Part shown: positions 29,419 to 47,926 of the stretch, piece by piece
Position numbering within the stretch: position 1 is the first letter of the stretch
Layout of the letters: every line of letters starts with the position of its first letter
Source of the DNA: Candidatus Multivoradales bacterium
Lineage (GTDB): Bacteria > Acidobacteriota > Thermoanaerobaculia > Multivoradales > Multivoraceae
Length of the DNA: 64,000 nucleotides
NCBI GenBank assembly: GCA_965223325.1
Contig: CBDCWI010000001.1
Span: 1,888,001 to 1,952,000, forward strand
Reading direction: 5' to 3'
Program-made: the position numbers and the translations under genes
Notes under the pieces: model-generated
What the model was told of the DNA's origin: nothing
What the model saw: the letters and a program-made list of their open reading frames with translations, nothing else
Database searches by the model: none

Positions 29419-30378
29419 ATGGGAGCAAAACCGAGATACGTACCAACGACCGACAGCGGGCCGGAACCAGTCATGCTGACCGCCCGCATTACCAACGGAA
29501 CCTTCCTGCTCAAGCCCGACTCTGAGCAGCGATCACACATGAACGGCATCATCGGCCGCGCACAGCGCAAGACCGAGATCCCCATCTACGCCGTCGACTA
29601 TCAGGTCAACCACCACCATTTCCTGGTCGGTGCACGAGACGCCCAGCAGCTGGCGGACTTCATGTACCGCGTCCAGCAGCAGACGAGCGTCGAGATCCGC
29701 ATTCGCCATGGCTGGAAGGGCCCGAAATGGGAAACGCCCTACAAACCGTCCTTTATCGGGCGCGACCCTGCCGATACGTCGAAGCGTTTCCGCTACGTCC
29801 TGGCGCAGGGCTGTGCGGCGGGCCTGGTGTCTTCACCTCTCAAGTGGCCTGGGGTGACCGTCGCGCGGGCCTTGTGGGAAGGGAAGTTCGAGCTCGAGGG
29901 CGAGTGGGTCGACCACACGGCCTACAGCCGGGCCAAGCGTACGAAGGCTGGGCGTCACTTGACGAAGAAGGACTTCACGAAGAAGGAAACGGTGGTGATT
30001 TCGAAGCTCCCGGGCCTTGACCACCTGAGTGACGAGGACTACTGCGAGTGGGTGCGCGAGATGATTCGCGGGATCGAACGCGAGACGCGAGCGCGTCATA
30101 AACGGGAAGGCACGAAGCCTGCCGGCCAGTGGAAGCTCTTTCGGTTGAGCCCTTTCGGGACTCCCAGGAAAATGGCTCTGGGCCCTTGTCCGCTGGTGAT
30201 TGCCAGCAATGAGGACGAGCAGCAGCGGTTGCTGGCTGCTTTTGACTGGGTGTGGCGGGCGCACCGGCTGGCGCGGGACCGTCAGCGTGAGGGAGAACTC
30301 GACGTGAAGTTCCCAGAGGGGACGTTTCCGAGCCCGCGACCCTTCGAGACGGTCCAGGCACTGAGGGCCGGCCCTTGA
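29419..30378 (+). mobile_element. REP-associated tyrosine transposase (RAYT, Y1 HUH superfamily)
   Basis: T.R...G.FLL.P N-terminus, IYAVDYQVNHHHFLV (HUH), W..PY, candidate catalytic Tyr in RYVLAQG..AGLV..P..WPG, C-terminal FPEGTF. Confidence 0.85.
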
Positions 30379-31233: not shown

Positions 31234-31961
31234 AGCGGTTCCCCCAGCAGGTAGCTCTCGAGACCCAAGGCGCGGGCTTCACTGTCACCGCTCTCGGTAT
31301 CTCGACTGGCGGCTACAGCATCAGCGTGGATCATATGTTCGCCGAAGCAGAGCGCATCGAGCACCGCCGCAGATCGCAGGTGCCAGCTCGCCCAGGTCAG
31401 AGGTGAGTCTCCGTTCGCGTCGCGGGCATCGACCTTCGCACCCGCCGCGATCAGTTTCCGAATCGAGCGCAAACTACCGAAGGCGGCTGCCCGGTGAAGT
31501 GGCATCTCACCACGGGTTCGCACATCACGCATGAACGACCCTGTCTCTGCGCCGGCTCTAGTCCTCACGTTCACCTCGGCACCGTGCGACAGCAACACGT
31601 CGACGACTCGGTCGGAGCGCCCGTTCGCACGCTTGGTGAACGCAGCGTGCAGCGGCCGCTCGAGGGTCTCTGGCTGTGAATGATTGACATCGGCACCTGC
31701 CTCGACCAGAAACTGCACCAGGCGCCAATGCCCATGGAAGACAGCACCGTTGAGATCGAGGTTCTCTCCTAGCGACGCCAACGACTCTCCGCTGTCCACT
31801 AGAGCGCGCACCGCGCTCACGTCGCCGTAGTAGGCACACCAACGGATGACCGGAGTCCCGTTTCCATCGCGAACCGCGGAAGAACCACCATCGGCCAGCA
31901 ATGAGAAGACCAGATCGGTGCGGCCCGCGGCGATGCGTTCGATGTACTTGGGAACTTGCAT
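31230..31961 (-). CDS. Ankyrin repeat protein
   Basis: GTPVIRWCAYYG, GHWRLVQFLVEAGADVN, ERPLHAA, GEMPLHRAAAFG, GDSPLTWA. Confidence 0.9.
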   Translation of the reverse strand: MQVPKYIERIAAGRTDLVFSLLADGGSSAVRDGNGTPVIRWCAYYGDVSAVRALVDSGESLASLGENLDLNGAVFHGHWRLVQFLVEAGADVNHSQPETLERPLHAAFTKRANGRSDRVVDVLLSHGAEVNVRTRAGAETGSFMRDVRTRGEMPLHRAAAFGSLRSIRKLIAAGAKVDARDANGDSPLTWASWHLRSAAVLDALCFGEHMIHADAVAASRDTESGDSEARALGLESYLLGEPL

Positions 31962-32074
31962 GAGATGCTCCTGCCCTCGTGAACCGTCGGTTTTGACTAT
32001 TCTTCCATCTGTCGCATCCCTCAGCGGTCGCGCCGCCACCGTGCGCCCGCGCGAGAACTGACCCCAACACCCTC

Positions 32075-33649
32075 ATGGCCACATCACCCGACATCACCAC
32101 CGCGGCCCTCGAGTCGCGCGCCTGGCCCTTCGCCGAAGCCCAGAAAGTCGTTGAACGCCTGGCGGGCACGACGCCTGAATACGCACTCTTCGAGACCGGC
32201 TACGGGCCCTCCGGCTTGCCGCACCTGGGGACTTTCGGTGAGGTTGCCCGCACCACCATGGTGTTACGCGCCTTCGAACTGCTCAGCGACATCCCGGCGC
32301 GCATGATCTGTTTCTCGGATGACATGGACGGCCTGCGCAAAGTCCCCGACAACATCCCCAACGCATTGGAGATGGCGCCGCACCTGGGCAAGCCGTTGAC
32401 GGAGGTCCCCGACCCCTTTGGCACCCACGAGAGCTTCGGTGCGCACAACAACGCGCGCCTGCGTTCCTTCCTCGATCAGTTCGGTTTCGAGTACGAGTTC
32501 TACTCGTCGACGGAGTGCTACAAGAGTGGCCGTTTTGACGACGCACTGCGCACCGTGCTCAGAAACTACGACCGCATCCTGAAGGTCATCCTGCCGACAC
32601 TGGGTGAGGAGCGCCGCAAGACCTATTCGCCGTTTCTTCCTGTTTGCCCCAAGACGGGCATCGTGCTCCAGGTGCCGATGCTCGAGGTGGACGCTGATGC
32701 CGCAACAGTCACCTTCGAGGACTCCGAAGGCGAGCGCCAGACGGTCTCGGTCACCGGGGGCAACGTCAAGTGCCAGTGGAAGGTCGACTGGGGGATGCGC
32801 TGGCACGCCCTCGGTGTCGACTATGAAATGTCTGGCAAGGACCTGATGGAGTCGGTGAAGCTGTCGAGCACCATCTGTCGCATCCTCGGCAGCAAGCCGC
32901 CAGAAGGCTTTACCTACGAACTGTTCCTCGACGAGAACGGCGAGAAGATCTCAAAGTCGAAGGGCAACGGCCTGACGATCGAAGAGTGGCTGCGCTACGG
33001 CACTCCCGAGAGCCTGTCGCTCTACATGTTCCAGAGCCCGCGCAAGGCCAAGAAGCTCTCCTTCGACGTTATCCCTCGCACGATGGACGACTATCGCACC
33101 TGGGTGCGCAAGTACCACGAGCAGGAGCAGGTCGACCGGTTCAAGAACCCGGCGTTTCATATCCACGGCGGCGATCCGTCGGCCGAGGACATGCCGATCG
33201 AGTTCTCGATTCTTCTCAATCTGGTAGCCGGAGCCCATGTCGAAGAAAAGGACGCGCTGTGGGGGTTCGTCTCCCGCTACCTGCCCGACGCATCGCCGGA
33301 AACGCACCCGACACTCGACCGAATGCTCGATCACGCGCTGCACTACTACCGCGACTTCATCCTGCCCAACCAACAGTTCCGCCCCGCCACCGACACCGAA
33401 GCCGAAGCGATGCGTGAGCTGGCAGTTGAGCTCGCGAAGATCCCGGAGGGTGTCGAGCCCGAGCAGTACCAGACCGTCGTCTATGAGGTCGGCAAGCGCT
33501 ATCCCTTCGATTCGCTGCGCGACTGGTTCTCCGCCCTCTACCAGGTGCTCCTCGGTCAGAAACAAGGTCCACGCATGGGCAGCTTCATCGCGGTTTATGG
33601 GCGCGACGAGACGATCGCGCTGATTGCAGAGAAGGTCGGCGAGGCCTAG
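32075..33649 (+). CDS. lysK: Lysine--tRNA ligase, class I (LysRS1)
   Basis: AWPFAEA, ETGYGPSGLPHLGTF (HIGH-like), SDDMDGLRKVP, KISKSKGN (KMSKS-like), GPRMGSF. Confidence 0.96.
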   Translation: MATSPDITTAALESRAWPFAEAQKVVERLAGTTPEYALFETGYGPSGLPHLGTFGEVARTTMVLRAFELLSDIPARMICFSDDMDGLRKVPDNIPNALEMAPHLGKPLTEVPDPFGTHESFGAHNNARLRSFLDQFGFEYEFYSSTECYKSGRFDDALRTVLRNYDRILKVILPTLGEERRKTYSPFLPVCPKTGIVLQVPMLEVDADAATVTFEDSEGERQTVSVTGGNVKCQWKVDWGMRWHALGVDYEMSGKDLMESVKLSSTICRILGSKPPEGFTYELFLDENGEKISKSKGNGLTIEEWLRYGTPESLSLYMFQSPRKAKKLSFDVIPRTMDDYRTWVRKYHEQEQVDRFKNPAFHIHGGDPSAEDMPIEFSILLNLVAGAHVEEKDALWGFVSRYLPDASPETHPTLDRMLDHALHYYRDFILPNQQFRPATDTEAEAMRELAVELAKIPEGVEPEQYQTVVYEVGKRYPFDSLRDWFSALYQVLLGQKQGPRMGSFIAVYGRDETIALIAEKVGEA

Positions 33650-33748
33650 CGACCCGGGCATCCGACGCACCTTCGGCTCGCTCCGAGAAGGGCCACAGCC
33701 ACCCAACGCCCAACACCGTCGACCGAAGAGGCGCGGTATCGTCGGCGA

Positions 33749-34252
33749 ATGAGCGACTCAGCCGCCACACTCTGCCTCCGCCCCGCCGAAGCGTCTGACA
33801 CGGCCCTCGTCCTCCGGTTCATTCGCGAACTGGCGGAGTACGAAAAGCTGCTCGACGAGGTGGTGGCAACCGAGGAGATGATCCGTGAGGCGCTCTTCGG
33901 CGACCACCCGACCATTGAGGTGACGATCGCTCTATGGCAAGGCGAACCGGCGGGCTTCGCGCTCTACTTCCACAACTTCTCGACTGTCCTGGGCAGGCAC
34001 GGCATCTACCTGGAAGACCTCTTCGTTCGGCCAGCGTTTCGGGGCCGGGGAATCGGCAAGGCGCTACTGGCGCATCTGGCACGCCTGGCGGTCGAACGCG
34101 GCTGCGGACGCCTGGAATGGGCGGTGCTCGACTGGAACGAACCGGCGATTGGTTTCTATCAGTCGATTGGCGCCCGCACGGTCGACGAATGGACGGCCTT
34201 CCGCCTGAGCGGCAAGGCACTCTCCGAACTCGCCGCAGAGCACCTCGCATGA
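33749..34252 (+). CDS. GNAT N-acetyltransferase (SSAT/diamine acetyltransferase-like)
   Basis: IRELAEYEK, IYLEDLFVRPAFRGRGIGKALL, RLEWAVLDWNEPAIGFY. Confidence 0.93.
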   Translation: MSDSAATLCLRPAEASDTALVLRFIRELAEYEKLLDEVVATEEMIREALFGDHPTIEVTIALWQGEPAGFALYFHNFSTVLGRHGIYLEDLFVRPAFRGRGIGKALLAHLARLAVERGCGRLEWAVLDWNEPAIGFYQSIGARTVDEWTAFRLSGKALSELAAEHLA

Positions 34253-35124
34253 GCGAAGCGCCCTACGTCCGCTACATGGAACGAACCCGCGATTGGTATC
34301 GCGCCCTCGGCTACCAGGTGGACTACCGCTGGGCCGAGCGGCACGCACCGGAACTCACACGGCTTGCCCAGCCGCTCGCCGACACCGTCGTCGCCCTCGT
34401 CACCACGGCCAGCCTCGCAGCGCCCGAAGGCTGGAGTGAGGGGCGCCCGAGCCTCGGGAAGCGGGTATGGTCGATTCCCCTCGACCGACTCCCCGAGAAC
34501 CTCTTTACCGACGACACCAGCTGGGCGAAAGAATCGACCCACACGGACGATCGCGAGTCGTACCTGCCGCTCGCCCACCTGGAGCGCGCCGCCCTCGAGA
34601 ACCGCATCGGTTCGCTCGCCCCGCGGGTCCATGGCCTCCCCACCGAATACTCACATCGCGCAACCGAAGAACGCGACGCCCCCGAACTCCTCCTTCGCCT
34701 GCGAAGAGACGGAGCACAAGCCGCCCTCTTCGTGCCACTGTGACCGGTTTGCCACCAGACCGTGAGTCTGGCCGCCAGGTACCTGGAAGAACGGGGCATC
34801 GCAACGGTAGTAGCGAGCTCTGCTCGAGACATCACGGAGCACTGTGGAGCGCCGCGGGTCCTGTTCACCAATCACCCGTTGGGTAACCCCATCGGCAGTC
34901 CCTGGGATCGGGCCACGCAGAGGGAAAACACCCAGCGTGCGCTCTCGCTGCTCGAGTCTGCGGTCTCCCCCGGGGAGACTGTGCTCTCGCCGACTGAATG
35001 GCAGGGGAAAGCCAGCTGGCAGCAGGCGTACATGAGCCTCGACGGCGAGGACCCAGAAGAACTGCTCGAGCGCGGACGAGCCCGGCGGCGTTTGCGAGAC
35101 GAGGCCAACGGCCGCACGCGATGA
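34249..35124 (+). CDS. PrdB/GrdB-like selenoprotein (UGA 34741-34743 read as Sec; U-x-x-C)
   Basis: ATG 34249 overlaps the GNAT stop. The frame continues across TGA as ...[29 protein letters not shown]..., ending at a TGA that overlaps the smoC ATG. 291 aa. Family motifs VALVTTA and D.ESYLPL..L......RIGSLA. Confidence 0.85.
34755..34771 (+). promoter_or_regulatory. Candidate bacterial SECIS hairpin
   Basis: ccagac-CGTGA-gtctgg, stem starting 12 nt after the UGA, with G in the apical loop. Confidence 0.6.
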
Positions 35125-36284
35125 TCCCCGAGAGCCCAGCGATCCCCGTCAGAACGAAGCTGTCCGCTGCCGAAGTGGCCTGGTTCAGCGCCCTGTGCTC
35201 AGACGACTACGAGTTCCTCGGGGTCCCTGATGGCAGACTGCGTAGCTCCTTCGCGCATTGCGCAGCGATCGTGCGTTCCGCCGACCGGCTTGGTTACGAC
35301 AACATCCTCCTGCCGAGCAGCTATCAGGTCGGCCAGGACCCACTCGTTTTTGCAGGCGCAGTCGCTCCGATGACCGAGCAGCTCTCCCTTCTGGCGGCAG
35401 TTCGTTGTGGTGAGGTGCACCCGCCCATGCTGGCGCGCGCGATTTCCACGCTCGACCATCTCCTCGAGGGTCGGCTGACGCTCAACATCATCTCTTCCGA
35501 CCTTCCGGGGGAAACGCTCGCGTCCGAAGCACGCTATCGCCGCTCGGCCGAAGTGATCGAGATTCTCCACCAGGCCTGGACCGCCGGGGCGATCGAGTTC
35601 CACGGTGAGTTCTACGACCTCGAGTTACCGACGACTGCACCGGTCGCGCCCTTCCAGCAGAACGGCGGTCCGCTCCTCTACTTCGGTGGCTACTCTGAAG
35701 CGGCGCGGGCCCTCTGTGCAAAACACTGCGACGTCTACCTCATGTGGCCCGATACCGAAGGCGGACTGGGCGCAACCATGCAGGACCTGGCCGAGCGCGC
35801 AGCAAAGTACGATCGCCAGCTCGACTTCGGACTGCGAATTCACGTCATTGTGCGCGAGACCGACGAAGCAGCGCGCCGGGCGGCAGATCGGCTGGTGTCG
35901 CGACTGGACGCCGAAGAAGGGTTGGCGATCAAGCAGCGCGCGCAAGACGGTGCTTCTGCCGGGGTGCTCCGCCAAGACGAACTGCGCAAGAAGAGCGACG
36001 ACGATTGGATCGAGCCCGAAGTGTGGAGCGGCATCGGTCGTGCGCGATCCGGCTGTGCAAGTGCCATTGTCGGTGACCCCGACACCGTGGCGCGCAAGCT
36101 CGAGCGCTACCTCGACCTGGGCATCCGCGCCTTCATCTTCTCCGGCTACCCCCACCTCGAAGAGTGCGAACTGTTCGCGCGCTATGTCCTCCCGAGGATT
36201 CCGCGCCTACGCCTCTCTGAGGTTCAGGGAAGGCGGCCCTCGAGCCCTCCTGAGACGCCCCTTACAACCGCCACGAGGCGCTAG
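35121..36284 (+). CDS. smoC: Sulfoquinovose monooxygenase (LLM flavin-dependent, SmoC/SquD-like)
   Basis: [76 protein letters not shown]. Matches my recollection of Agrobacterium SmoC rather than SsuD; adjacent to an smoB-like gene. Confidence 0.85.
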
Positions 36285-36300
36285 CCTTCAGAAGGTACCA

Positions 36301-37242
36301 ATGAGAAGAATTGCTCTTCACCGTAGCCAGACCGACTCTGGCGCCGAGCTATCACTTCCCGCCGTGACCTACGGCTGCTGGCGCCTGGCCGACGACCCCG
36401 CCGGAACAGAACCGGCGATCGTGCAGAAGAAGGTCGAGACCTGCCTCGAGCACGGCATCAGCGCCTTCGACCACGCCGACATCTACGGCGACTACCGGTG
36501 CGAGGCACTCTTCGGAGACCTCCTCGCGCAGCAACCACAGCTCCGCGAACAGATCCAGTTGATCAGCAAGACCGACATCGCACTCGTCTCGGCGTCGCGC
36601 CCCGAACATCGGGTCAAGCACTACGACACCTCGGCGCGGCACATCGAAGAGTCGGTCGAGCGCTCGCTCAGAAACCTTCGAGCCGAAACCCTGGACCTCC
36701 TCCTGCTGCACCGGCCCGACCCCCTGATGGACGCCGACGAGACGGCCCATGCCCTGCAGGCACTCTTCGAGAGCGGCAAGGTCACCCACTTCGGGGTCTC
36801 CAACTTCCCCTCGTCACAGTTCGAGCTCCTTCAGGCCCGCCTGGACCTGCCGCTGGTCACGAACCAGATCGAGCTGTCACTCCTCGAACACGCAGCATGC
36901 ACGAACGGCACCCTCGACTTCCTGGCGCAACACCGCATTGCACCGATGGCCTGGTCCCCTCTTGGCGGTGGACGCTTGTTTACGGGCTCCAGCGACCGAA
37001 TACGCGGCGTACGTTCGGTGCTCGACGCCCTGGCAGTGGAACGCGAGCTCGAGGTCTCCGACCGCTCGCGCATGCAACTCGCCCTGGCGTGGATCCTGCG
37101 CCTTCCTTCGCAGCCGATCGTGGTCATTGGAACCAACAAATCGCAACGCATCGCCGCCTCGGCTGAGGCTTCCGAGATCGAACTCAGTCGCCAGGAGTGG
37201 TTCCGGCTCTACGAAGCTGCTCTAGGCCAGGAAGTTCCGTGA
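36301..37242 (+). CDS. smoB: Aldo/keto reductase, SmoB/SquF-like (6-oxo-glucose reductase)
   Basis: YGCWRLADD, DHADIYGDY, RVKHYDT, LLHRPDPL, GVSNF, TNQIELS, PMAWSPLGGG; directly after smoC. Confidence 0.8.
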   Translation: MRRIALHRSQTDSGAELSLPAVTYGCWRLADDPAGTEPAIVQKKVETCLEHGISAFDHADIYGDYRCEALFGDLLAQQPQLREQIQLISKTDIALVSASRPEHRVKHYDTSARHIEESVERSLRNLRAETLDLLLLHRPDPLMDADETAHALQALFESGKVTHFGVSNFPSSQFELLQARLDLPLVTNQIELSLLEHAACTNGTLDFLAQHRIAPMAWSPLGGGRLFTGSSDRIRGVRSVLDALAVERELEVSDRSRMQLALAWILRLPSQPIVVIGTNKSQRIAASAEASEIELSRQEWFRLYEAALGQEVP

Positions 37243-37294
37243 CTGGCAGATGACGGTTCCAGGCACTTCCTTCCAACAACCGGAAGTGGGCTAG

Positions 37295-39097
37295 ATGCTT
37301 CAAACCCTCGATCTGGTCGTCTTCTTCGCCGCTCTCGCTGCGGTGATGGGGATCGGCCTGTGGGCGGCCCGCAACGAAGACACGAGTGAGGATTTTTTCC
37401 TCGCCGGCCGCACCATTCGTTGGTGGGGTGTGGCCGGTTCGGTCTTTGGCTCGAACGTCAGCGCCAACCACCTTGTGGGAATGCTCGGCATTGGCTTCTC
37501 GATCGGTTTCGCCCAAAGCCATTTCGAACTCGGCGCCATTGCCGCCTTGATGCTCCTGGCCTACGGCTTCCTACCGGTCTACCGCAAACTCGGGGTCTAC
37601 ACCCTGTCGAGCTACCTCGGCCAGCGCTACGACGGTCGAAGTCAAACGCTCTATGCGCTCATTCTCCTGGTGGTTGCAGTCGTTCAGCTGACGGCCGGCT
37701 TCTACATCGGCTCGCGCTCACTCGGGCTCCTGCTCTCGGGCACCGTGCTCGAGCTGAGCTACGCCGTCGGAGTCGTCGCGCTGGTCATCGTGACCGCGAC
37801 CTACACGGTCGTCGGCGGGCTCAAAGCTGTCATCTACACCGATGTCATGCAGTCGATTCTGCTCTTGTTTGCCGGGGTCGGGATTGCGATCCTGACCTTC
37901 CAACAGCCGGAAGTGGGTGGCTGGCTGGGCATGATGGCGCACGACGGTGCCCGCCAGGTCGCTGAGCAGAAGATGCACCTCTACCTGCCGAGCTCGCACC
38001 CCGACTTGCCGTGGTCGGGAACGCTCTCGGGGCTTCTGCTCTTGCACTGCTTCTACTGGTCGACCAACCAGACCATCGTGCAGCGCACCCTCGCTGCACA
38101 CTCGGACCGCGACGCGCGCCTGGGCATTATCGTCGCCGGCTTTCTGAAGCTGCTCATTCCGTTCTTTGCGATCGCCGGCGGTGTGGCGGCGGCGCAGCTT
38201 TTCGAGATCCGCTTTCCCGATCGTCTGATCGACCCCGACGCGGCGACCCCAGAGCTCATTCGAACGGTCGTCCCGGCCGGTTACGGATTGGTAGGCATCG
38301 TGATGGCAGGGCTGTTGGGTGCCATTCTGTCGTCGATCGACTCGCTGGTGAACTCGGCCTCGACGCTTTTCACCTTCGACATCTACAAACGCTTTGTGAA
38401 ACCCGAGGCGGACGACAAGGAGTGTCTCCTGGTGGGCAAAGTGGTGCTCACCGTTCTTCTGCTCGTGTCGGCGACCCTCGCGCTCCTGACCTATGACCCC
38501 ACCGGTGGCGGCAACTTCTTCCTGCGGGTTTCGAGTCAGGCCGGCCATTTCACCCCCGGCCTGGTAACCGCCTTCGCGCTCGGCATGTTCTGGCGCGGCG
38601 CCAAGGCAAGGGGGGCCGCGGTTTCGATTGTGCTCGCACCCGTCTTTTCCTGGGGCATCGTTGCCGCCCACCATGCCTGGTTCGGCACCGTGCCCTGGAT
38701 CGCCTCGTTGCTCGGTAGTGACCTGAACTTCCTGCACCGCGTCCTGGCCACGGTGCTCTTTGCTGCCCTGGTTCACATCCTGGTGAGTCGCCTTTCTCCG
38801 AGCAGCAGCGATAGCGCGGTTGGCGAACGGTTCACCTTCTTCGCTCTCTCGGGTGCCGACCCTGTCCAGTTCAGCCGGCTCCTGGGAGTCCTCGTTGGGC
38901 TCGCGATCGCCTGGCTGGTACTCGGCATCACCGTCGATCGCGGCATGGTCTCGAACAGTTTCGCTGCTCTGGTCGCTGCCGCCACCGCCTGGATACCTTT
39001 CGCGCCCTATCTCGTTGGCCGGTCCCTTCGCGACGACCGTTGGTGGGCGGCCACCCTCTGTAGCGCCACCATGGCCATCATGTTCTTCTTTTTCTAG
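37295..39097 (+). CDS. Sodium:solute symporter (SSS), candidate sulfoquinovose(-glycoside) importer
   Basis: DFFLAGR, SNVSANHLVG, GGLKAVIYTD..Q, YWSTNQTIVQR, SSIDSLVNSASTLFT.D. Confidence 0.9.
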   Translation: MLQTLDLVVFFAALAAVMGIGLWAARNEDTSEDFFLAGRTIRWWGVAGSVFGSNVSANHLVGMLGIGFSIGFAQSHFELGAIAALMLLAYGFLPVYRKLGVYTLSSYLGQRYDGRSQTLYALILLVVAVVQLTAGFYIGSRSLGLLLSGTVLELSYAVGVVALVIVTATYTVVGGLKAVIYTDVMQSILLLFAGVGIAILTFQQPEVGGWLGMMAHDGARQVAEQKMHLYLPSSHPDLPWSGTLSGLLLLHCFYWSTNQTIVQRTLAAHSDRDARLGIIVAGFLKLLIPFFAIAGGVAAAQLFEIRFPDRLIDPDAATPELIRTVVPAGYGLVGIVMAGLLGAILSSIDSLVNSASTLFTFDIYKRFVKPEADDKECLLVGKVVLTVLLLVSATLALLTYDPTGGGNFFLRVSSQAGHFTPGLVTAFALGMFWRGAKARGAAVSIVLAPVFSWGIVAAHHAWFGTVPWIASLLGSDLNFLHRVLATVLFAALVHILVSRLSPSSSDSAVGERFTFFALSGADPVQFSRLLGVLVGLAIAWLVLGITVDRGMVSNSFAALVAAATAWIPFAPYLVGRSLRDDRWWAATLCSATMAIMFFFF

Positions 39098-40235
39098 CGC
39101 TGCGGACTGCCGCGTCTTCGAGTAGCTCCGACATCTCGACCGGGCGACCCAACTCGATCGATCGATGGGCCGCGCAACCAATCGCCACCGCCTGCGTCCC
39201 GTCTGCAACGCCGACTTCGACCGGCCCGTCGCCTGCGATTGCCATGAGGAAAGCGCGGTGCTGCCAGTAGGTCGCACCATGGTGGTGACCGGCGGCGAGT
39301 AGCCGTTCGTCGATGTCGATCGTCTCGCTCGTCACCCGATCCGGCCGCATGCCAACGAACCCATGTTTGTCCGTCGCTTGCATCGCGAGATCACGCCGGC
39401 CAATACGAACCGTCGAATCCGGTAGCAGGCACTCGAGTTTGCCGGCATCTCCGGTGACCGAGATCTCCTGTTCGTGAAGTGAGGCTTCGGCGAACATACA
39501 GAGGTCGAGTGACGCGCGGATGCCTCCGTCGAAATCGACGACGACAAACGCGTTGTCGAGAATGTCGGGCACCTCGCCGTCGTAGCGCTCGTCGAGATGG
39601 TTGACATCTTGCGCACCACTGGCGTAGACCCGCTGAGGTGCCGCTCCCGTGATGCGAGCCATCAAATCGAAGAAGTGGCAGCATTTCTCCACCAGCGTTC
39701 CGCCGGTGTTGCGATTGAAGCGGTTCCAGTCACCGACTTTGGGAAGAAACGGAAAGCGGTGCTCACGGATCGCCACCATGCGCACTCGTCCTACCGTGCC
39801 GGCGTCGACTTCTTGGATGAGCCGCGCCACCGGTGGCATGTAGCGGTACTCCATACCGATCCACACCACCCCGTCATGGCTCGCTGCCTTTTCTTCGACC
39901 ACCCGACAATCAGCCAGGGTCGTACACATCGGCTTCTCTACCAGCAGATGGAGCCCACTCCCCCACAACCCGTCCAGAACCTCGGCATGGGTGTGGTTTG
40001 GCGAGGCGATCACCACAGCATCGACCAGACCGGAGCGCGCCAGCTCGAGGTGATCCTCGAAAGAAACGGGCTCGGCCGTTGGGTTGAGTGACAGGTGCAG
40101 GTCTTCCGCCCACTTCCGCGACCGTGGATGCGGGTCGCAAATCGCGGTGACCTCGGCGCCAGGGAGCAGCGCGATGTTGCGCATGTGCTCGAGGCCCATG
40201 AGACCCGTTCCAACGATGCCGTAGCGTGTAGTCAT
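39078..40235 (-). CDS. sqgA: Gfo/Idh/MocA protein, NAD+-dependent sulfoquinovosidase-like (GH188, SqgA)
   Basis: GTGLMG, VEKP, MEYRYMP, EHRFPFLPKVGDWNRF, VEKCCHFFD, HHHGATY; clustered with smoC/smoB. Confidence 0.75.
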   Translation of the reverse strand: MTTRYGIVGTGLMGLEHMRNIALLPGAEVTAICDPHPRSRKWAEDLHLSLNPTAEPVSFEDHLELARSGLVDAVVIASPNHTHAEVLDGLWGSGLHLLVEKPMCTTLADCRVVEEKAASHDGVVWIGMEYRYMPPVARLIQEVDAGTVGRVRMVAIREHRFPFLPKVGDWNRFNRNTGGTLVEKCCHFFDLMARITGAAPQRVYASGAQDVNHLDERYDGEVPDILDNAFVVVDFDGGIRASLDLCMFAEASLHEQEISVTGDAGKLECLLPDSTVRIGRRDLAMQATDKHGFVGMRPDRVTSETIDIDERLLAAGHHHGATYWQHRAFLMAIAGDGPVEVGVADGTQAVAIGCAAHRSIELGRPVEMSELLEDAAVRSARKRRT

Positions 40236-40351
40236 TGCCAGTGAGGTGCCCCGGTCTGTCGGGTTGGTTGCGAGGATTCCGTCGGAAGGGTATCGCTCCT
40301 TCCGCGCCGAAAACCGATCTGGCTACCAAGGGCCGATCGACCTGCAAGTCC

Positions 40352-42349
40352 CTACAAACGCGACTCGACGTACTCGAGGCTCGCTTTCGCCCGCGGATCG
40401 TCGGGTGCAAGAGCAACCAGTTGGGTAAAAACCTCCTTGGCCTCACGCCAGCGCTCCTGACTCGCAAGCAGCACTCCGAGATCGGCGAGTGCAGGCAGGT
40501 AGCGGGCGTCGCGCGCGAGAACGCTGCGGAGCCCTTCTTCGGCGACGTCGAGATCGCGCCGCCCCATGTAGACGGTGGCGAGTTGGTAGAGGAGCTCGAT
40601 GTTGGCCTCGTCTCTCGCCAGGTTGTCGCGAGCGCTCTCGAGTGCCTCGTCCATTCTCTCGAGGGCCAGGTAGGTGCTGGTGCGAAGTGCCCGCATCGAC
40701 AGATCGCTCGGGTCAGCCTCGATGGCTAGCGGAACGAAGGTCGCCGCCTCGTCGAGGCGCCCGAGGTCAAACGACAGGCGTGCCAGGGCTCTCGTGTACA
40801 GGCCGGAGCCGCCGGAGATAGCGAACGCACGACGGTAGGCCTCGTAGGCTGGCTCGGGCTGGCCCGATTCTTCGTAGGCCACGGCGAGGAACTGCCAGGC
40901 GTCGAGCAGTCGCGGATGGCGGTTGACGGTTCGCGCCAGAAGTTGCACGGCGTCCTGCGCCCTTCCCAGCCGCAGACTGTCGATGCCTCGCTGCAGGGTC
41001 GCAAGTGACTCGATCTCCTGACGCGGGTCGGGCAGGTCGGTCGCTGGCAAAGTGGCTTCGCTGCTCAAGTAGCCGAGCGACAAGAGCGCCTCGCGATCTT
41101 CCTCTTCTGCGGCGCTGCTATCTCTAGCCTGGGGCGGCTCGATCGAGGCCTCCGCCAGGGCAGCTCGCAGAGGCTCTGCTCGCTGCCCACCGAGGTCGTT
41201 CTGCTCGCCCGGATCTACTGCGAGGTCGAAGAGCTCACCGTAGGCACCTTCGATCCAATGGAGGTCACCCTCGATTACCGAGGTCAGTCCATGCCATCCC
41301 AGGCGCAGCTGCGGATAGAACGTCTCGGCGAAGATCGGGCGCTGGGGATGTTCCGCGAGCTCGAGAAGAGTCGGCGCCGGGTTGCCGAGAGGGGCAGCAC
41401 CGCCAGGGGCCACGAGTGCGAGCAAGGTCCCAGGCACGTCGCTCAGTTGAGCAGGCTCGGTCACCGACTGGCCTCTGCGCTCGGCGCCCGGCAACTTGAC
41501 GATCAGCGGAACCTGAAGAGCCTCGCGGTGCAGCAGGATGCCGTGTTGGTCCTCGCCATGCTCGCCGAGACCTTCCCCGTGATCCGAGAGTAGAACGACG
41601 ATCGCCTCGTCGTAACGCTCGAGACGACGCAGCTCTGCCAAGAGCTCGCCCACCAGGGCATCGACCGCTGCGATCTCGCCGTCATAAGGGTGTGCGACCT
41701 GATCAAAAGGAGGAGGCGGCTCATACGGCGCGTGCGGCTCGTAGAAATGCACCATCAAAAAGAACGGCTCTTCGCCGAAACCGTTCAGTAACTCTCTGGC
41801 GCCCTCCAGCACCTCGCGACCATCGCGCTGGGTTTCAGCAGCGGTCGCACGCACGAGCTGCTCGATCTCGTCGTCGTAGAACTCGAAGCCCTGAGCGATT
41901 CCTGTCGCACGCCGCATGACGAAACTCGAAACCACCGCCGCCGTCCGGTAGCCCTCGGCCACCAGACGCTCAGCAAACGTCTCTATGTCTTCCGCCAGGC
42001 GAAAGCCCGAGTTGTCTCGCACCCCGTGTTGATGCGGCAGGAGGCCAGTCAAGAGCGACGCATGGGCCGGCAGAGTGAGTGGAATCGGGCTGTAGGCGCG
42101 CTCGAACAGCAGACTGTCGGCGCGCAATCGATCGATGGCCGGCGTGGCGACGCCATCGTAACCATAGACCGGCAGATGGTCGGAGCGCAGGGTATCGATT
42201 GAGATCAGGAGAATCGGCGGCTTTGTCCCAGCCACAGCCTCCGACCCGGGACTCTCCTGCGGCTCAGCTCCCTGACAGGTCAGTAGAAGGAAGCCGGCGC
42301 CGGCCGCCAGGAGAGCGTGTTGCCGTTTCGATGTCCACACGCTGTTCAT
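40352..42349 (-). CDS. Sulfatase-like hydrolase with C-terminal TPR repeats
   Basis: LISIDTLRSDH, PLTLPAHASLLTG, HFYEPHAPY, SDHGEGLGEHGE..HG, LLSLGY, then TPRs; signal peptide. Confidence 0.9.
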   Translation of the reverse strand: MNSVWTSKRQHALLAAGAGFLLLTCQGAEPQESPGSEAVAGTKPPILLISIDTLRSDHLPVYGYDGVATPAIDRLRADSLLFERAYSPIPLTLPAHASLLTGLLPHQHGVRDNSGFRLAEDIETFAERLVAEGYRTAAVVSSFVMRRATGIAQGFEFYDDEIEQLVRATAAETQRDGREVLEGARELLNGFGEEPFFLMVHFYEPHAPYEPPPPFDQVAHPYDGEIAAVDALVGELLAELRRLERYDEAIVVLLSDHGEGLGEHGEDQHGILLHREALQVPLIVKLPGAERRGQSVTEPAQLSDVPGTLLALVAPGGAAPLGNPAPTLLELAEHPQRPIFAETFYPQLRLGWHGLTSVIEGDLHWIEGAYGELFDLAVDPGEQNDLGGQRAEPLRAALAEASIEPPQARDSSAAEEEDREALLSLGYLSSEATLPATDLPDPRQEIESLATLQRGIDSLRLGRAQDAVQLLARTVNRHPRLLDAWQFLAVAYEESGQPEPAYEAYRRAFAISGGSGLYTRALARLSFDLGRLDEAATFVPLAIEADPSDLSMRALRTSTYLALERMDEALESARDNLARDEANIELLYQLATVYMGRRDLDVAEEGLRSVLARDARYLPALADLGVLLASQERWREAKEVFTQLVALAPDDPRAKASLEYVESRL

Positions 42350-42449
42350 CAGCCTAAGTCTGCCGAAACGATCGAAACGAACGGCCCGACGGTACACGGC
42401 CCTGGGACGAGTCGCTGACTGCGATTGCACCGATCTCGAGCCCTTGATG

Positions 42450-42475
42450 TGAAACAAACGCCGTTTCGAGGCGTC
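42450..42475 (+). promoter_or_regulatory. SigW/SigM-like ECF sigma promoter
   Basis: TGAAAC-N16-CGTC about 40 bp before the ADOP start; shares TGAAACAAACGCC with 9913. Confidence 0.65.
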
Positions 42476-42513
42476 CAGCACCTTGATCCCGTAAATCCGA
42501 GAGAGGAAGGTCC

Positions 42514-45033: not shown

Positions 45034-45939
45034 ATGAGCAACGCACTGGAACACCCTGGAAGACTCGGCGTCTGGACGTGGATCGACGCCTTCTCCTCTG
45101 AACAAGCCGCGGACTTTGCCAAGCAACTCGAAACGTGGGGCTACTCCACCCTTTGGATCCCCGAAGCCGTCGGGCGTGATCCCTTCGCCCTGATCGGCTA
45201 TCTGGCAGGCCAGACCGAAACTCTCAACTTCGCCACCGGCATCGCCAACATCTACGCCCGTGACCACGTCACGATGAAGGCGATTCATCAGACTCTTTCC
45301 GAGATGCTGCCAGGCCGTTTCATTCTCGGTCTGGGCGTCTCGCACCCACATCTGGTTTCGCGCCTGCGCGGGCACGAGTGGAAGAAACCAATTCCCAAGA
45401 TGCGTGGCTACCTGGAAGCGATGAAGGGTGCGATCTATCACGGGCCGAAGCCTGAGCTCGAAGCTCCCATCGTGATCGCAGCGTTACGTCCGCTGATGAT
45501 GGGGCTCGCGCGCGATCATGTGCGCGGTGCCCATCCCTACCTGGTGACTCCAGAACATACCCAGCGCGCGAGAGAAATCCTCGGTGACGGCCCGTGGTTG
45601 TGCCCGGAACAGAAGGTGATTCTCGAAACTGACGCCGAAACCGCACGAGGCGTTGCGCGCGGCCAACTGACGCCCTACCTGCGGGCGCCCAACTACCAGA
45701 ACAATCTTCGCGAGATCGGCTTCGAGGACAGCGACTGGCAAGACGGAAAGGCGAGCGATCGCCTGATCGACGCGCTCGTCGCCTGGGGCGATGTCGACAC
45801 TATTCGCGAACGCATCGAGGCGCACTGGAGTGCCGGCGCCGACCATGTTTCGATCCAGCCGTTCCGTCCCGACGGAGCTCCCGGGCCCGACATGAAAGCA
45901 CTCGAAGTGTTGGCACCGGCTACCGAGCGTGCGAGCTAG
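45034..45939 (+). CDS. LLM-class oxidoreductase, probably F420-dependent (TIGR03620-like)
   Basis: WIPEAVGRDPF, ATGIANIYARD, GRFILGLGVSH, AALRPLM, GAHPYLVTPEHT, AGADHV. Confidence 0.85.
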   Translation: MSNALEHPGRLGVWTWIDAFSSEQAADFAKQLETWGYSTLWIPEAVGRDPFALIGYLAGQTETLNFATGIANIYARDHVTMKAIHQTLSEMLPGRFILGLGVSHPHLVSRLRGHEWKKPIPKMRGYLEAMKGAIYHGPKPELEAPIVIAALRPLMMGLARDHVRGAHPYLVTPEHTQRAREILGDGPWLCPEQKVILETDAETARGVARGQLTPYLRAPNYQNNLREIGFEDSDWQDGKASDRLIDALVAWGDVDTIRERIEAHWSAGADHVSIQPFRPDGAPGPDMKALEVLAPATERAS

Positions 45940-47926
45940 AGGCCTGCTGAAGAACTCCCGCGAGGCTGAGCGCGGGGATCTGGGCTCTCTGTTCGTGCCG
46001 ACGCGAGGAGGCGATGTCTGTGCATCGTTGACGAGTCGTCGGTGCGGACGGCGAGCCCAAACCCCCGCGCCCGCTGGGTTTGACGGCGTGGGCCTCGCTG
46101 CAGCACGGCGAACGCTCTACGATGGAGCACAGCATCGCATTCGCGCACGGCGCACCACATCGAGACCCACGGCGCTCAAACTCAGCCACACGAGAGTTCT
46201 TCAGCAAGCCCCTAGCTTGCTCACCGCGTTTGCGGTGATGCTCCTGACTCTGCCGCTGGCCGCGCAGGAACCACCAGCGCCGCAACCCGAGGCCGACCAG
46301 GACCGCGAAGCTCCGGGCGACCTGATCACCACCGAGACCTCGCTCGGAAAAGTCGTCGGTACCGAAACCTTCCTGGGCGGTTTGAGCTTCCGCGGTATTC
46401 CGTACGCCGAGCCCCCGGTTGGATCACTACGCTTCAGGGCGCCGAAGGCAAAGAGCCCCTGGCCTGGCATCTTGAACGCCAAGGAGTTCGGGCCAGCTTG
46501 CCCGCAGATCGCAGATCCACTCGAAGGGATCCCGGAAGAACTCGGTGCCCTCGACAACGAAGACTGTCTGTCGATCAACGTCTGGACCCCGGGTCTCGAC
46601 GAGGCCGCGCGCCCGGTCATGGTGTGGATTCACGGTGGTTCCAACGTCGCCGGCTCCAGCCGCTCACCGCTCTACGATGGCTCGGTGCTTTCTGCCCGTG
46701 GCGATGTGGTGGTGGTGTCGTTCAACTACCGCCTCGGCCTGTTGGGTTGGCTCGACGTCACTCAGTTCGGCGGCCAGAACTACGCCGGCGCTGCCAACAA
46801 CGGCATGCGCGACCAGATTCTGGCGCTACGCTGGGTGCAGGAGAACATCGGCGCTTTCGGCGGCAACCCCAACAACGTCACCGTCTTCGGAGAGTCGGCC
46901 GGGTCGATGGCGGTTTCAACCTTGCTCACCTTGGCGCGTCCCGAACGCTTGTTTCGCGCCGCGATCCTGCAAAGCGGCGTGACCTTCTCCACCGACCTCG
47001 AAAGCGCCAAGGCGATGGCTGCCGACTTCTTCGAGCGTGCCGCCATCACCGAGTCCAAACAGCTCAGAGAGATGGCGACTGCCGATCTTCTAGCGGCACA
47101 AAAGCGCGCTCTCGATACCTACCAGGGAACCGACGGTGACGTCATCTTCGTCACGCGGCCGATCGAAGAACCTCTGACCGCCACTCCCTTCGAGGCTGTG
47201 CGTGCCGGGAATGCCGCCCAGGTATCGCTGGTGCTCGGGACTACCGAGGACGAGATGCGCTACTGGTTGCACTACCTACCAGAGCTGCGCGATACCCATC
47301 CTGCCGACCTCGGCCTCGGCCTGTCTCCGGAGAACCTCGAGGCATTGCTGCTCCCCTACCGCGAGAACACCCAGTACAGCTCTGCCGGTGATCTGTCCCT
47401 GGCGCTCCTCAGCGACCTCTACTTCCGCATGCCGACTCTCCTACTCGCCGAGGCGCAGGCGGTTCATACGCCGAACGTCTGGCACTATCTCTTCGCCCGG
47501 GACATCCCGCGCTCTGATCTCGGCGCCGCTCATGCCGCCGAGCTACCTTTCGTCTTCGGAACCCTCGGCCTTCGCGTCGCCGCCCCGCTGACAGGCCTTC
47601 CGCTCGATCACCAGGAACGCTCACAGAACGCGAAACTCGCCACGGCAATGCAAGACCTGTGGCTCGGCCTCGCGATCTCGGGCGATCCCAACGCCAGCGC
47701 CAACGAGGCCCTGCCGCTGTGGTCACGCTACGACGCAGCCGAACGCGCGACCCTGCGAATCGAGGACGACTTCACCGTGGTTTCTGATCCCGGCGCTCCC
47801 ATGCGCGAAGCGTGGCTCGCGGGGTATGGCCGTGAACTCCTGCGCCAGGTCTTTGGGCCCGGTCTCTTCGCTGCGTCTCCTGGCGAGTCCTCCGAGCCCA
47901 GTGCGGGAGGTGACAACGTTCCGTAG
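45929..47926 (+). CDS. Secreted type-B carboxylesterase carrying an in-frame MITE in its signal peptide
   Basis: FRGIPYAEPPVG.LRF, EDCL.INVW, WIHGG, NYRLG, FGESAG, AAHAAEL. Removing the MITE restores MRASLLTAFAVMLLTLPLAA-QE. Confidence 0.9.
   Translation: MRARGLLKNSREAERGDLGSLFVPTRGGDVCASLTSRRCGRRAQTPAPAGFDGVGLAAARRTLYDGAQHRIRARRTTSRPTALKLSHTRVLQQAPSLLTAFAVMLLTLPLAAQEPPAPQPEADQDREAPGDLITTETSLGKVVGTETFLGGLSFRGIPYAEPPVGSLRFRAPKAKSPWPGILNAKEFGPACPQIADPLEGIPEELGALDNEDCLSINVWTPGLDEAARPVMVWIHGGSNVAGSSRSPLYDGSVLSARGDVVVVSFNYRLGLLGWLDVTQFGGQNYAGAANNGMRDQILALRWVQENIGAFGGNPNNVTVFGESAGSMAVSTLLTLARPERLFRAAILQSGVTFSTDLESAKAMAADFFERAAITESKQLREMATADLLAAQKRALDTYQGTDGDVIFVTRPIEEPLTATPFEAVRAGNAAQVSLVLGTTEDEMRYWLHYLPELRDTHPADLGLGLSPENLEALLLPYRENTQYSSAGDLSLALLSDLYFRMPTLLLAEAQAVHTPNVWHYLFARDIPRSDLGAAHAAELPFVFGTLGLRVAAPLTGLPLDHQERSQNAKLATAMQDLWLGLAISGDPNASANEALPLWSRYDAAERATLRIEDDFTVVSDPGAPMREAWLAGYGRELLRQVFGPGLFAASPGESSEPSAGGDNVP
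45940..46211. mobile_element. 272-bp MITE with CTAG target-site duplication
   Basis: Left end aggcctgctgaagaactcccg versus reverse complement of the right end gggcttgctgaagaactctcg (18/21). CTAG at 45936-45939 and 46212-46215. No transposase. Confidence 0.88.

Follow-up and report, generated by a model that had tools for sequence, protein, structure and literature searches.

The locus described here raises the question of whether a selenoprotein gene that overlaps the gene for a sulfoquinovose (SQ) monooxygenase takes part in SQ catabolism or only lies beside it. The locus is found in a 64,000-nucleotide stretch of the genome of Candidatus Multivoradales bacterium (Acidobacteriota; contig CBDCWI010000001.1, positions 1,888,001 to 1,952,000), referred to as a whole as the window. 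Here, a gene for a PrdB-like protein with a selenocysteine (Sec) residue in a UxxC motif is directly followed by smoC, which encodes the luciferase-like monooxygenase (LLM) of the SQ monooxygenase (sulfo-SMO) pathway. Each part belongs to a known kind; they are found together in a single genome, and the comparison with other genomes gives no support for a common function. It is probable that a conventional sulfo-SMO cluster and a widespread PrdB-like selenoprotein gene have come to lie side by side by rearrangement, without any indication of a role for the selenoprotein in SQ catabolism. Since none of the other genomes examined has the pairing, it is most likely the product of a local rearrangement rather than a sign of a new pathway.

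The adjacency of the selenoprotein and SmoC genes is unique to this genome among the loci searched. The comparison covered 87 SmoC loci (5 from relatives and 82 further loci, 80 of them metagenomic and 2 from the phylum) and 109 other PrdB-like loci (80 from other genomes, 28 from relatives and the genome's own paralogue). Neither a PrdB-like gene nor a GNAT gene, the family encoded upstream of the selenoprotein gene in the window, was found in the five SmoC loci of relatives, and the 82 further SmoC loci gave no PrdB-like match (E ≤ 1e-5, four family queries). The sequence upstream of SmoC is long enough for such a gene (≥900 bp) in 72 of the 85 loci measured. In the opposite direction, a SmoC orthologue was found at none of the 109 other PrdB-like loci. 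At the 80 loci from other genomes, no match to SmoC, the aldo/keto reductase (AKR), the sodium:solute symporter (SSS), SqgA/Gfo or GNAT was obtained at E ≤ 1e-10, one distant LLM fragment excepted, and none to SmoC, AKR, SSS, Gfo or GNAT was obtained within ±1.5 kb of the remaining 29 (28 from relatives and the paralogue). The window also has no neighbours in common with the PrdB-like loci of four relatives, and no GNAT or selenoprotein gene lies downstream of the class-I lysyl-tRNA synthetase gene (lysS) of two relatives. A first-pass annotation of this DNA had proposed a functional link between the selenoprotein and SQ catabolism, had asked for a search of smoC neighbourhoods for PrdB-like genes, and had named beforehand an adjacency confined to this genome as a result that would speak against the link. 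When the search was run, the adjacency proved to be so confined (0 of 87 SmoC loci with a PrdB-like neighbour, 0 of 109 PrdB-like loci with SmoC).

On the Methylomirabilota contig L076, an SsuD/SmoC-like LLM fragment (positions 48–500; 158 residues aligned with SmoC at 39% identity) is located ~640 nt upstream of, and on the same strand as, a Sec-form PrdB-like gene (1137–1937); the sister locus, L085, does not have this arrangement. Distant LLMs appear at 4 of the 80 PrdB-like loci when the threshold is relaxed to E ≤ 1e-3 (24–39% identity). This signal was rejected as background because none of these LLMs is a SmoC orthologue (those are ≥54% identical), because the arrangement is missing from the sister locus, and because LLM genes are common, two being present in the window.

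The genes downstream of the selenoprotein gene form, judged from their sequences, a complete and conventional sulfo-SMO catabolic cluster, as the LLM is a SmoC orthologue and the Gfo/Idh/MocA gene encodes a sulfoquinovosidase of glycoside hydrolase family 188 (GH188). The LLM matches the solved structures of AtSmoC (7OLF, E 1.8e-138) and RoSmoC (7OH2, E 6.4e-135), and its matches to MsuD/SsuD are far weaker. The RoSmoC residues named in PMC8795539 as binding the phosphate of flavin mononucleotide (FMN; Y136 and S189) and the sulfonate (W206, R236, H238, Y341 and H343) are all kept in an alignment read by eye. The convergent Gfo/Idh/MocA gene, whose presence had been recorded correctly in the first-pass annotation and left unexplained there, matches ArSqgA (8QC3, E 2.6e-116) and FlSqgA (8QC2, E 1.3e-111). 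Of the SQ- and sulfonate-binding residues of ArSqgA named in PMC10755693, K107, Y136, R166, L170, K172, E189, H193 and H321 are all kept, again as read by eye (chain number = paper number + 13). A sulfoquinovosidase within the cluster serves as a criterion for sulfo-SMO clusters in Sharma et al. 2022 (PMC8795539), and the GH188 gene provides that enzyme here. GH31 was not found in the genome, and GH188 genes are described in PMC10755693 as occurring in sulfo-SMO clusters without GH31. The AKR matches SmoB (7BBY/7BC0) at E 4.2e-81 and gives scores in the same range to YdhF (1OG6) and 4R9O; as all three are equally close, the match assigns its family, and 6-oxo-glucose reductase activity is probable. 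With these SmoC, SqgA and SmoB-type matches, the earlier assignment of the downstream genes to a sulfo-SMO cluster is upheld.

Of 40 related genomes, five have a SmoC orthologue (55–74% identity). An SSS gene and an SqgA homologue lie downstream of SmoC in two of these loci, and SqgA, AKR and SSS genes flank it in a third. The SSS gene follows SmoC in 3 of the 5 loci (68–70% identity), and 36 of the 82 further loci contain a match to it. The conserved module in relatives is SmoC-SSS-Gfo(-AKR), without GNAT or selenoprotein (0 of 5 loci). In the phylum as a whole SmoC is rare, being found in 3 of 401 sampled genomes, this one included. In the pathway predicted for the window cluster, the SSS importer would take up SQ or its glycoside, the NAD+-dependent GH188 sulfoquinovosidase would free SQ from the glycoside, SmoC would desulfonate SQ with reduced FMN (FMNH2) and O2, yielding sulfite and 6-oxo-glucose, and reduction of the latter to glucose would fall to the SmoB-type AKR. 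A rearrangement in this one genome would have put the GNAT and selenoprotein genes directly upstream of smoC. At SmoC loci elsewhere, a second kind of Gfo/Idh/MocA gene (24–27% identity to the window SqgA) lies directly downstream of SmoC in 11 of 85 loci and may encode a different pathway enzyme. A gene of the GH13 alpha-amylase family lies directly upstream of SmoC in 10 of 85 loci, and a sulfatase gene is likewise present in 10 of 85.

The first-pass annotation had also drawn attention to the lack of a flavin reductase gene and had suggested that the selenoprotein could supply reducing equivalents. The lack itself stands: none of the 44 open reading frames (ORFs) called in the window matches a flavin-reductase family, SmoA/SsuE is absent from the cluster, and four PF01613 queries (tblastn) found nothing in the window. 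It is not an anomaly. Among the 87 SmoC loci, only 3 have a PF01613-like gene, the one family sought there; the absence is thus normal for such loci, and a linked reductase is not a defining feature in practice. A 2026 survey scores sulfo-SMO on SmoB and SmoC alone (PMC13372026). The proposed search of the genome for smoA returned one PF01613 flavin reductase gene, on contig 2 and not in the cluster, and PF03358 (SsuE-type) was not found in the genome. FMNH2 is most likely supplied by a flavin reductase encoded away from the cluster, which seems to be the usual situation at SmoC loci. Adjoining the PF01613 gene on contig 2 is a ~319-residue gene with an IS200-like Y1 transposase domain (PF01797), and a second ~319-residue PF01797 gene lies at window positions 29419–30378, 2 kb upstream of lysS.

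The upstream partner is a genuine Sec-decoding selenoprotein gene, in agreement with the earlier assignment, as shown by a column shared by TGA and Cys codons, a covarying selenocysteine insertion sequence (SECIS) and the decoding machinery. The genome (6.69 Mb, 2 contigs, 98.2% complete), searched for selABCD as had been suggested, has selA, selB and selD, each above its curated cut-off, and a tRNA-Sec with the anticodon tca. The active-site motif of the protein is U165-P-V-C168-H-Q, that is, a Sec-x-x-Cys redox motif. This C/U-P-V-C-H-Q block is invariant in a 20-sequence alignment, in which homologues have Cys at the Sec site. At the 80 loci from other genomes, the codon at this site, counted by hand, is TGA in 51 and Cys in 27, with a variant of the motif in 2; TGA occupies the site in 71 distinct homologous loci, and in related genomes (n = 28) exactly one in-frame TGA is present in 50 of 53 matches. 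The SECIS-like hairpin begins 14 nt past the UGA (+15 to +31). All six stem pairs are formed in 61 of the 71 distinct Sec forms versus 1 of 29 Cys forms. Across the alignment, 95.8% of the stem cells are paired, with compensatory changes at 3 of the 6 pairs; changes on both sides occur in 38 cells versus 11.3 ± 2.3 in shuffled alignments, a value reached by none of 500 shuffles, and the pairing is lost when the partner strand is slid. A second TGA-containing PrdB-like paralogue is encoded on contig 2 (1756960–1757745, minus strand) beside an acyl-CoA dehydrogenase gene.

The selenoprotein has been mis-annotated as a truncated protein, since the sole database record of the gene (34249–34743) is a 164-residue product that ends at the Sec codon. 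Sequencing depth along the contig rises ~4-fold in one run (X1) and ~27-fold in another (X2) over the UPVCHQ/SECIS stretch only (window 34668–34788), and a 50-nt piece of this stretch is matched at 85–90% identity by contigs that stem from other organisms of these samples. Together, the rise in depth and these matches indicate that the SECIS-bearing segment is conserved at the DNA level across many members of the community.

With regard to family, the first-pass description of the protein as PrdB/GrdB-like is borne out in part. The NCBIfam model for PrdB (TIGR04483) matches it over residues 35–252 at E 3.8e-16, scoring 59.3 bits where the cut-off is 300; the GrdH model gives 20 bits against a cut-off of 775. 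No Pfam family, including PF07355 (GRDB), the one named in the first-pass annotation, matches at E ≤ 0.001, and PF07355 is present in a few homologues and in 14–53% of the members of Atlas clusters. Among the proteins scored, 260 homologues were found at E ≤ 1e-5, mostly of ~290 residues and annotated as 'glycine reductase' or 'PrdB'. A protein-atlas search with a natural Cys homologue returned only 'glycine reductase family' clusters, with no functional lead. The AlphaFold2 model (pLDDT 82) has no counterpart among solved structures: the best sequence match has E 0.31, and Foldseek against the PDB gave a best E of 8e-3 and none at E ≤ 0.001. Relationships to LacI-type, periplasmic-binding-type and SDR-type folds (VIA-align wide, best Z 9.4) were considered and rejected as reflecting a generic three-layer alpha/beta Rossmann-like arrangement. 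Searches of the genome for the partner subunits PrdA/GrdE (PF09338) and GrdA (PF04723) gave no match, but 14 control genomes gave none either, which leaves this search without a positive control. From the lack of a Pfam match, the PrdB score below cut-off, the lack of a structure match and the negative search for PrdA/GrdE and GrdA, the selenoprotein is probably a distant stand-alone relative of selenoprotein B and not a subunit of D-proline or glycine reductase.

The genomic context of PrdB-like genes is not conserved; the commonest neighbour family, AMP-binding, is found at 9 of 80 loci, and ClpB, SDR and SLT at 7 each. The family is expanded in this bacterial family, with matches in 23 of 24 genomes and up to 6 copies per genome (G010), followed by G007 and G009 with 5 each. 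By analogy with GrdB and PrdB, the window selenoprotein would cycle between a selenol/thiol and a selenenylsulfide state and is most likely a reductase in which Sec165 would attack the substrate and Cys168 would resolve the adduct to a selenenylsulfide, which a thiol system, such as thioredoxin, would re-reduce.

The features of the locus are collected in the table. The gene order reported earlier (GNAT, UxxC protein, LLM, AKR and SSS, with a convergent Gfo/Idh/MocA gene), including both ATGA overlaps, was read again from the sequence and the Pfam matches. The GNAT stop codon (TGA, 34250–34252) overlaps the selenoprotein start codon (ATG, 34249–34251) in ATGA at 34249–34252, and the selenoprotein stop codon (TGA, 35122–35124) overlaps the smoC start codon (ATG, 35121–35123) in ATGA at 35121–35124. 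The start codons of the selenoprotein and SmoC agree with the N-termini of homologues to within a few residues. A gap of 16 nt separates smoC from the AKR gene, and the convergent SSS and GH188 genes overlap by 20 nt at their 3' ends. Overlaps of 4 nt occur in 4 of the 25 same-strand neighbour pairs of the window, 2 of them outside the locus, as counted on crude ORF calls. The GNAT protein reaches the cut-off of no NCBIfam model. A scan of positions 31500–40800 gave 0 promoter-like sites and 8 terminator-like sites versus 5.2 ± 2.1 expected and is uninformative. The GNAT-selenoprotein-SmoC junctions and the TGA codon are identical in contigs of three sequencing runs from one study, which is possibly the source of the assembly; a run from a second study gave short pieces only, none spanning a junction. 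The GNAT, selenoprotein, smoC, AKR and SSS genes would, from this layout, be co-transcribed.

Table. Features of the selenoprotein and sulfo-SMO locus, in window coordinates.
Feature	Position	Strand	Basis
GNAT N-acetyltransferase gene	33749..34252	+	Pfam PF00583, E 8e-22
Stand-alone PrdB-like selenoprotein gene	34249..35124	+	Translation with TGA = U; 291 codons + stop
In-frame UGA, selenocysteine codon (U165)	34741..34743	+	Aligned Cys/TGA column
SECIS-like hairpin, 6-bp stem CCAGAC/GUCUGG, loop CGUGA	34755..34771	+	Centroid fold and covariation
SmoC, FMNH2-dependent sulfoquinovose monooxygenase orthologue (LLM)	35121..36284	+	Match to solved SmoC structures
SmoB/YdhF-type aldo/keto reductase, probable 6-oxo-glucose reductase	36301..37242	+	PF00248; SmoB match
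Sodium:solute symporter (SSS), probable importer of SQ or its glycoside	37295..39097	+	PF00474, E 3.6e-63
GH188 NAD+-dependent sulfoquinovosidase (SqgA homologue; Gfo/Idh/MocA)	39078..40235	-	Match to ArSqgA/FlSqgA

Several observations weigh against a mere juxtaposition. The surveys behind the uniqueness of the adjacency are samples: from at least 557 SmoC matches, and likewise from at least 563 PrdB-like ones, the 80 best were taken. Flanks reached 5–8 kb at most (only 1.5 kb at the PrdB-like loci of relatives), and PF01613 is the one flavin reductase family covered by the count of linked reductases. In addition, the ATGA overlaps leave no room for a separate promoter, and the selenoprotein gene and smoC are for this reason probably co-transcribed, translationally coupled and expressed together. 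The window copy of the selenoprotein is itself unusual. Its end branch of 1.05, versus a median of 0.18, is the longest in a tree of 108 family members, and at columns that are ≥90% conserved it is changed in 10 of 61, where the other members have a median of 1 change and never more than 7. Even so, the Sec codon, a 6/6-pair SECIS stem, a full-length frame and all 33 columns that are invariant in the 20-sequence alignment are retained. Such fast evolution with retention of Sec, SECIS and motif could reflect drift of a passenger gene, the onset of decay or an adaptation to the operon it has joined, and it agrees with a changed function no less than with drift.

The window copy shares 48.6–52.9% identity with the copies of seven relatives, which are 54–80% identical among themselves. 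An origin by horizontal gene transfer was considered, as the free tree placed the window copy among Alphaproteobacteria-type sequences, and was rejected, as the tree constrained to group it with the relatives' clade scores better. This grouping is allowed by the approximately unbiased (AU) test (p-AU 0.783), and the constrained tree is better by 19.5 log-likelihood units. On account of this better score, the window copy looks like the lineage's own gene, sped up, and not like an import.

The alternative that survives best is that of a lineage-specific recruitment, in which the PrdB-like selenoprotein gained a role in SQ desulfonation once its gene lay in the sulfo-SMO operon. The operon would here have captured a rapidly evolving PrdB-like reductase with Sec, which would work with SmoC, either as a flavin supplier, passing reducing equivalents from a thiol system to FMN, or as a scavenger that detoxifies sulfite or removes peroxide arising from uncoupled flavin turnover. 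The tight ATGA coupling to smoC fits this proposal, as does a window without a flavin reductase in a genome with a single PF01613 gene and no PF03358. The accelerated evolution of a copy that keeps its Sec codon, SECIS and invariant residues is likewise in agreement with it and leaves it some probability; under the AU test the copy may be related by vertical descent to the clade of the relatives, which suggests that it diverged in situ and was not imported. In contrast, the adjacency is unique among the 87 SmoC and 109 other PrdB-like loci, the orthologous SmoC clusters of five relatives work without a selenoprotein, and 84 of the 87 SmoC loci also have no linked PF01613 reductase, so that there is no gap that needs filling. 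We know of no GrdB/PrdB relative that reduces flavin. A literature search, judged by titles and the opening of abstracts, found no paper linking selenoproteins with SQ catabolism. The comparative evidence does not favour recruitment, which is considered unlikely.

A decaying passenger is ranked below recruitment and is doubtful. The smoC-adjacent copy would be under relaxed selection, with a functionless product heading for loss, and its end branch, the longest in the tree, and the most numerous changes at conserved columns (10 of 61) would be explained, as would the retention of a second, less diverged paralogue on contig 2. This proposal is difficult to reconcile with a frame of 291 codons that is intact but for the Sec codon, with the 33 invariant columns all kept, with a perfect SECIS stem and with a gene packed without spacers between two intact genes. 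Least probable of all is that GNAT and the selenoprotein form a two-gene unit of their own that is unrelated to SQ and only shares the transcript, with a PrdB-like reductive cleavage followed by acetylation of the freed amine: the two genes overlap by ATGA, PrdB and GrdB chemistry yields amines, and neighbours of the family elsewhere include AzlC/AzlD, alanine-racemase-like, amidohydrolase and TctC genes, but no GNAT homologue is found at 80 PrdB-like loci (E ≤ 1e-10) or at 29 (E ≤ 1e-6), the single GNAT-like match at E ≤ 1e-3 has 31% identity and lies on the opposite strand, and the genome gave no match to PrdA/GrdE or GrdA in a search that, as noted above, had no positive control. The juxtaposition by rearrangement of a conventional cluster and a widespread selenoprotein gene is preferred over these alternatives.

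Other genes of the window were noted in passing. The class-I lysyl-tRNA synthetase gene (PF01921; NF001968, 839 bits) lies just upstream of the locus at 32075–33649 and is patchily distributed: two of five relatives searched with it as query (E ≤ 1e-80), G010 and G007, gave a match, and G001, which is of the same genus, gave none. Immediately past the SqgA gene, positions 40352–42481 (minus strand) encode a sulfatase with a long TPR region fused to it, and a second sulfatase is encoded at 57351–59390 (minus strand). The other LLM gene of the window is shorter (301 aa) and shares 11 nt with a carboxylesterase gene (45034–47926), and an ADOP permease is encoded in the window according to NCBIfam.

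On the preferred reading, the significance of the locus is modest and has three sides. The sulfo-SMO + GH188 cluster type is extended to a phylum in which SmoC is rare, and the covarying SECIS documents the stand-alone PrdB-like family as a true and mostly Sec-using selenoprotein family with up to six copies per genome in this bacterial family. Public gene calls cut the gene short at the Sec codon. If recruitment were true, the protein would become the first selenoprotein with a link to sulfosugar catabolism and would offer a first functional handle and experimental entry on a family that was described in 2005 and is abundant in aerobic and marine bacteria.

The cluster can be compared with three known systems. 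The smoABCDEFGHI cluster of Agrobacterium tumefaciens, as presented in PMC8795539, resembles it in SmoC with the named residues, in a SmoB-type AKR and in the conversion of SQ into sulfite and 6-oxo-glucose and then glucose. In contrast to that system, the window cluster is without the SmoA flavin reductase, the ATP-binding cassette (ABC) transporter with SmoF, the GH31 enzyme SmoI and a regulator, and it has an SSS importer, GH188 and the GNAT and selenoprotein genes joined upstream. Sulfo-SMO clusters with GH188 SqgA, described as near-universal in bacteria of the marine Roseobacter clade (Kaur et al. 2023, PMC10755693), share the combination of SmoC and GH188; they belong to another phylum, and the descriptions of them consulted mention no selenoprotein. 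The alkanesulfonate monooxygenase system SsuD/SsuE shares the LLM fold and the dependence on FMNH2, and SsuD is the best NCBIfam match of the window SmoC (256.8 bits). However, this score is below the SsuD cut-off of 518, and the window protein scores much higher against SmoC (465 bits) than against SsuD (195 bits).

For the selenoprotein, D-proline reductase PrdB and glycine reductase GrdB are the characterized reference points, with a distant similarity and Sec in a UxxC motif; the window protein differs in scoring far below the family cut-off and in belonging to an organism that has oxygen-dependent pathways. A further likeness is to the marine UxxC family named 'proline reductase PrdB', which is reported among the most abundant marine selenoproteins, with 42 sequences from the Sargasso Sea (Zhang et al. 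2005, PMC1088965) and 235 from Global Ocean Sampling (GOS; Zhang & Gladyshev 2008, PMC2398784). From annotation (PrdB, UxxC, PF07355) and not from sequence comparison, we infer that the window selenoprotein is of this same family. As described in these two surveys, the marine family, like that of the window protein, has the UxxC motif, comes in Sec as well as Cys versions, is encoded by stand-alone genes of aerobic bacteria and is highly abundant.

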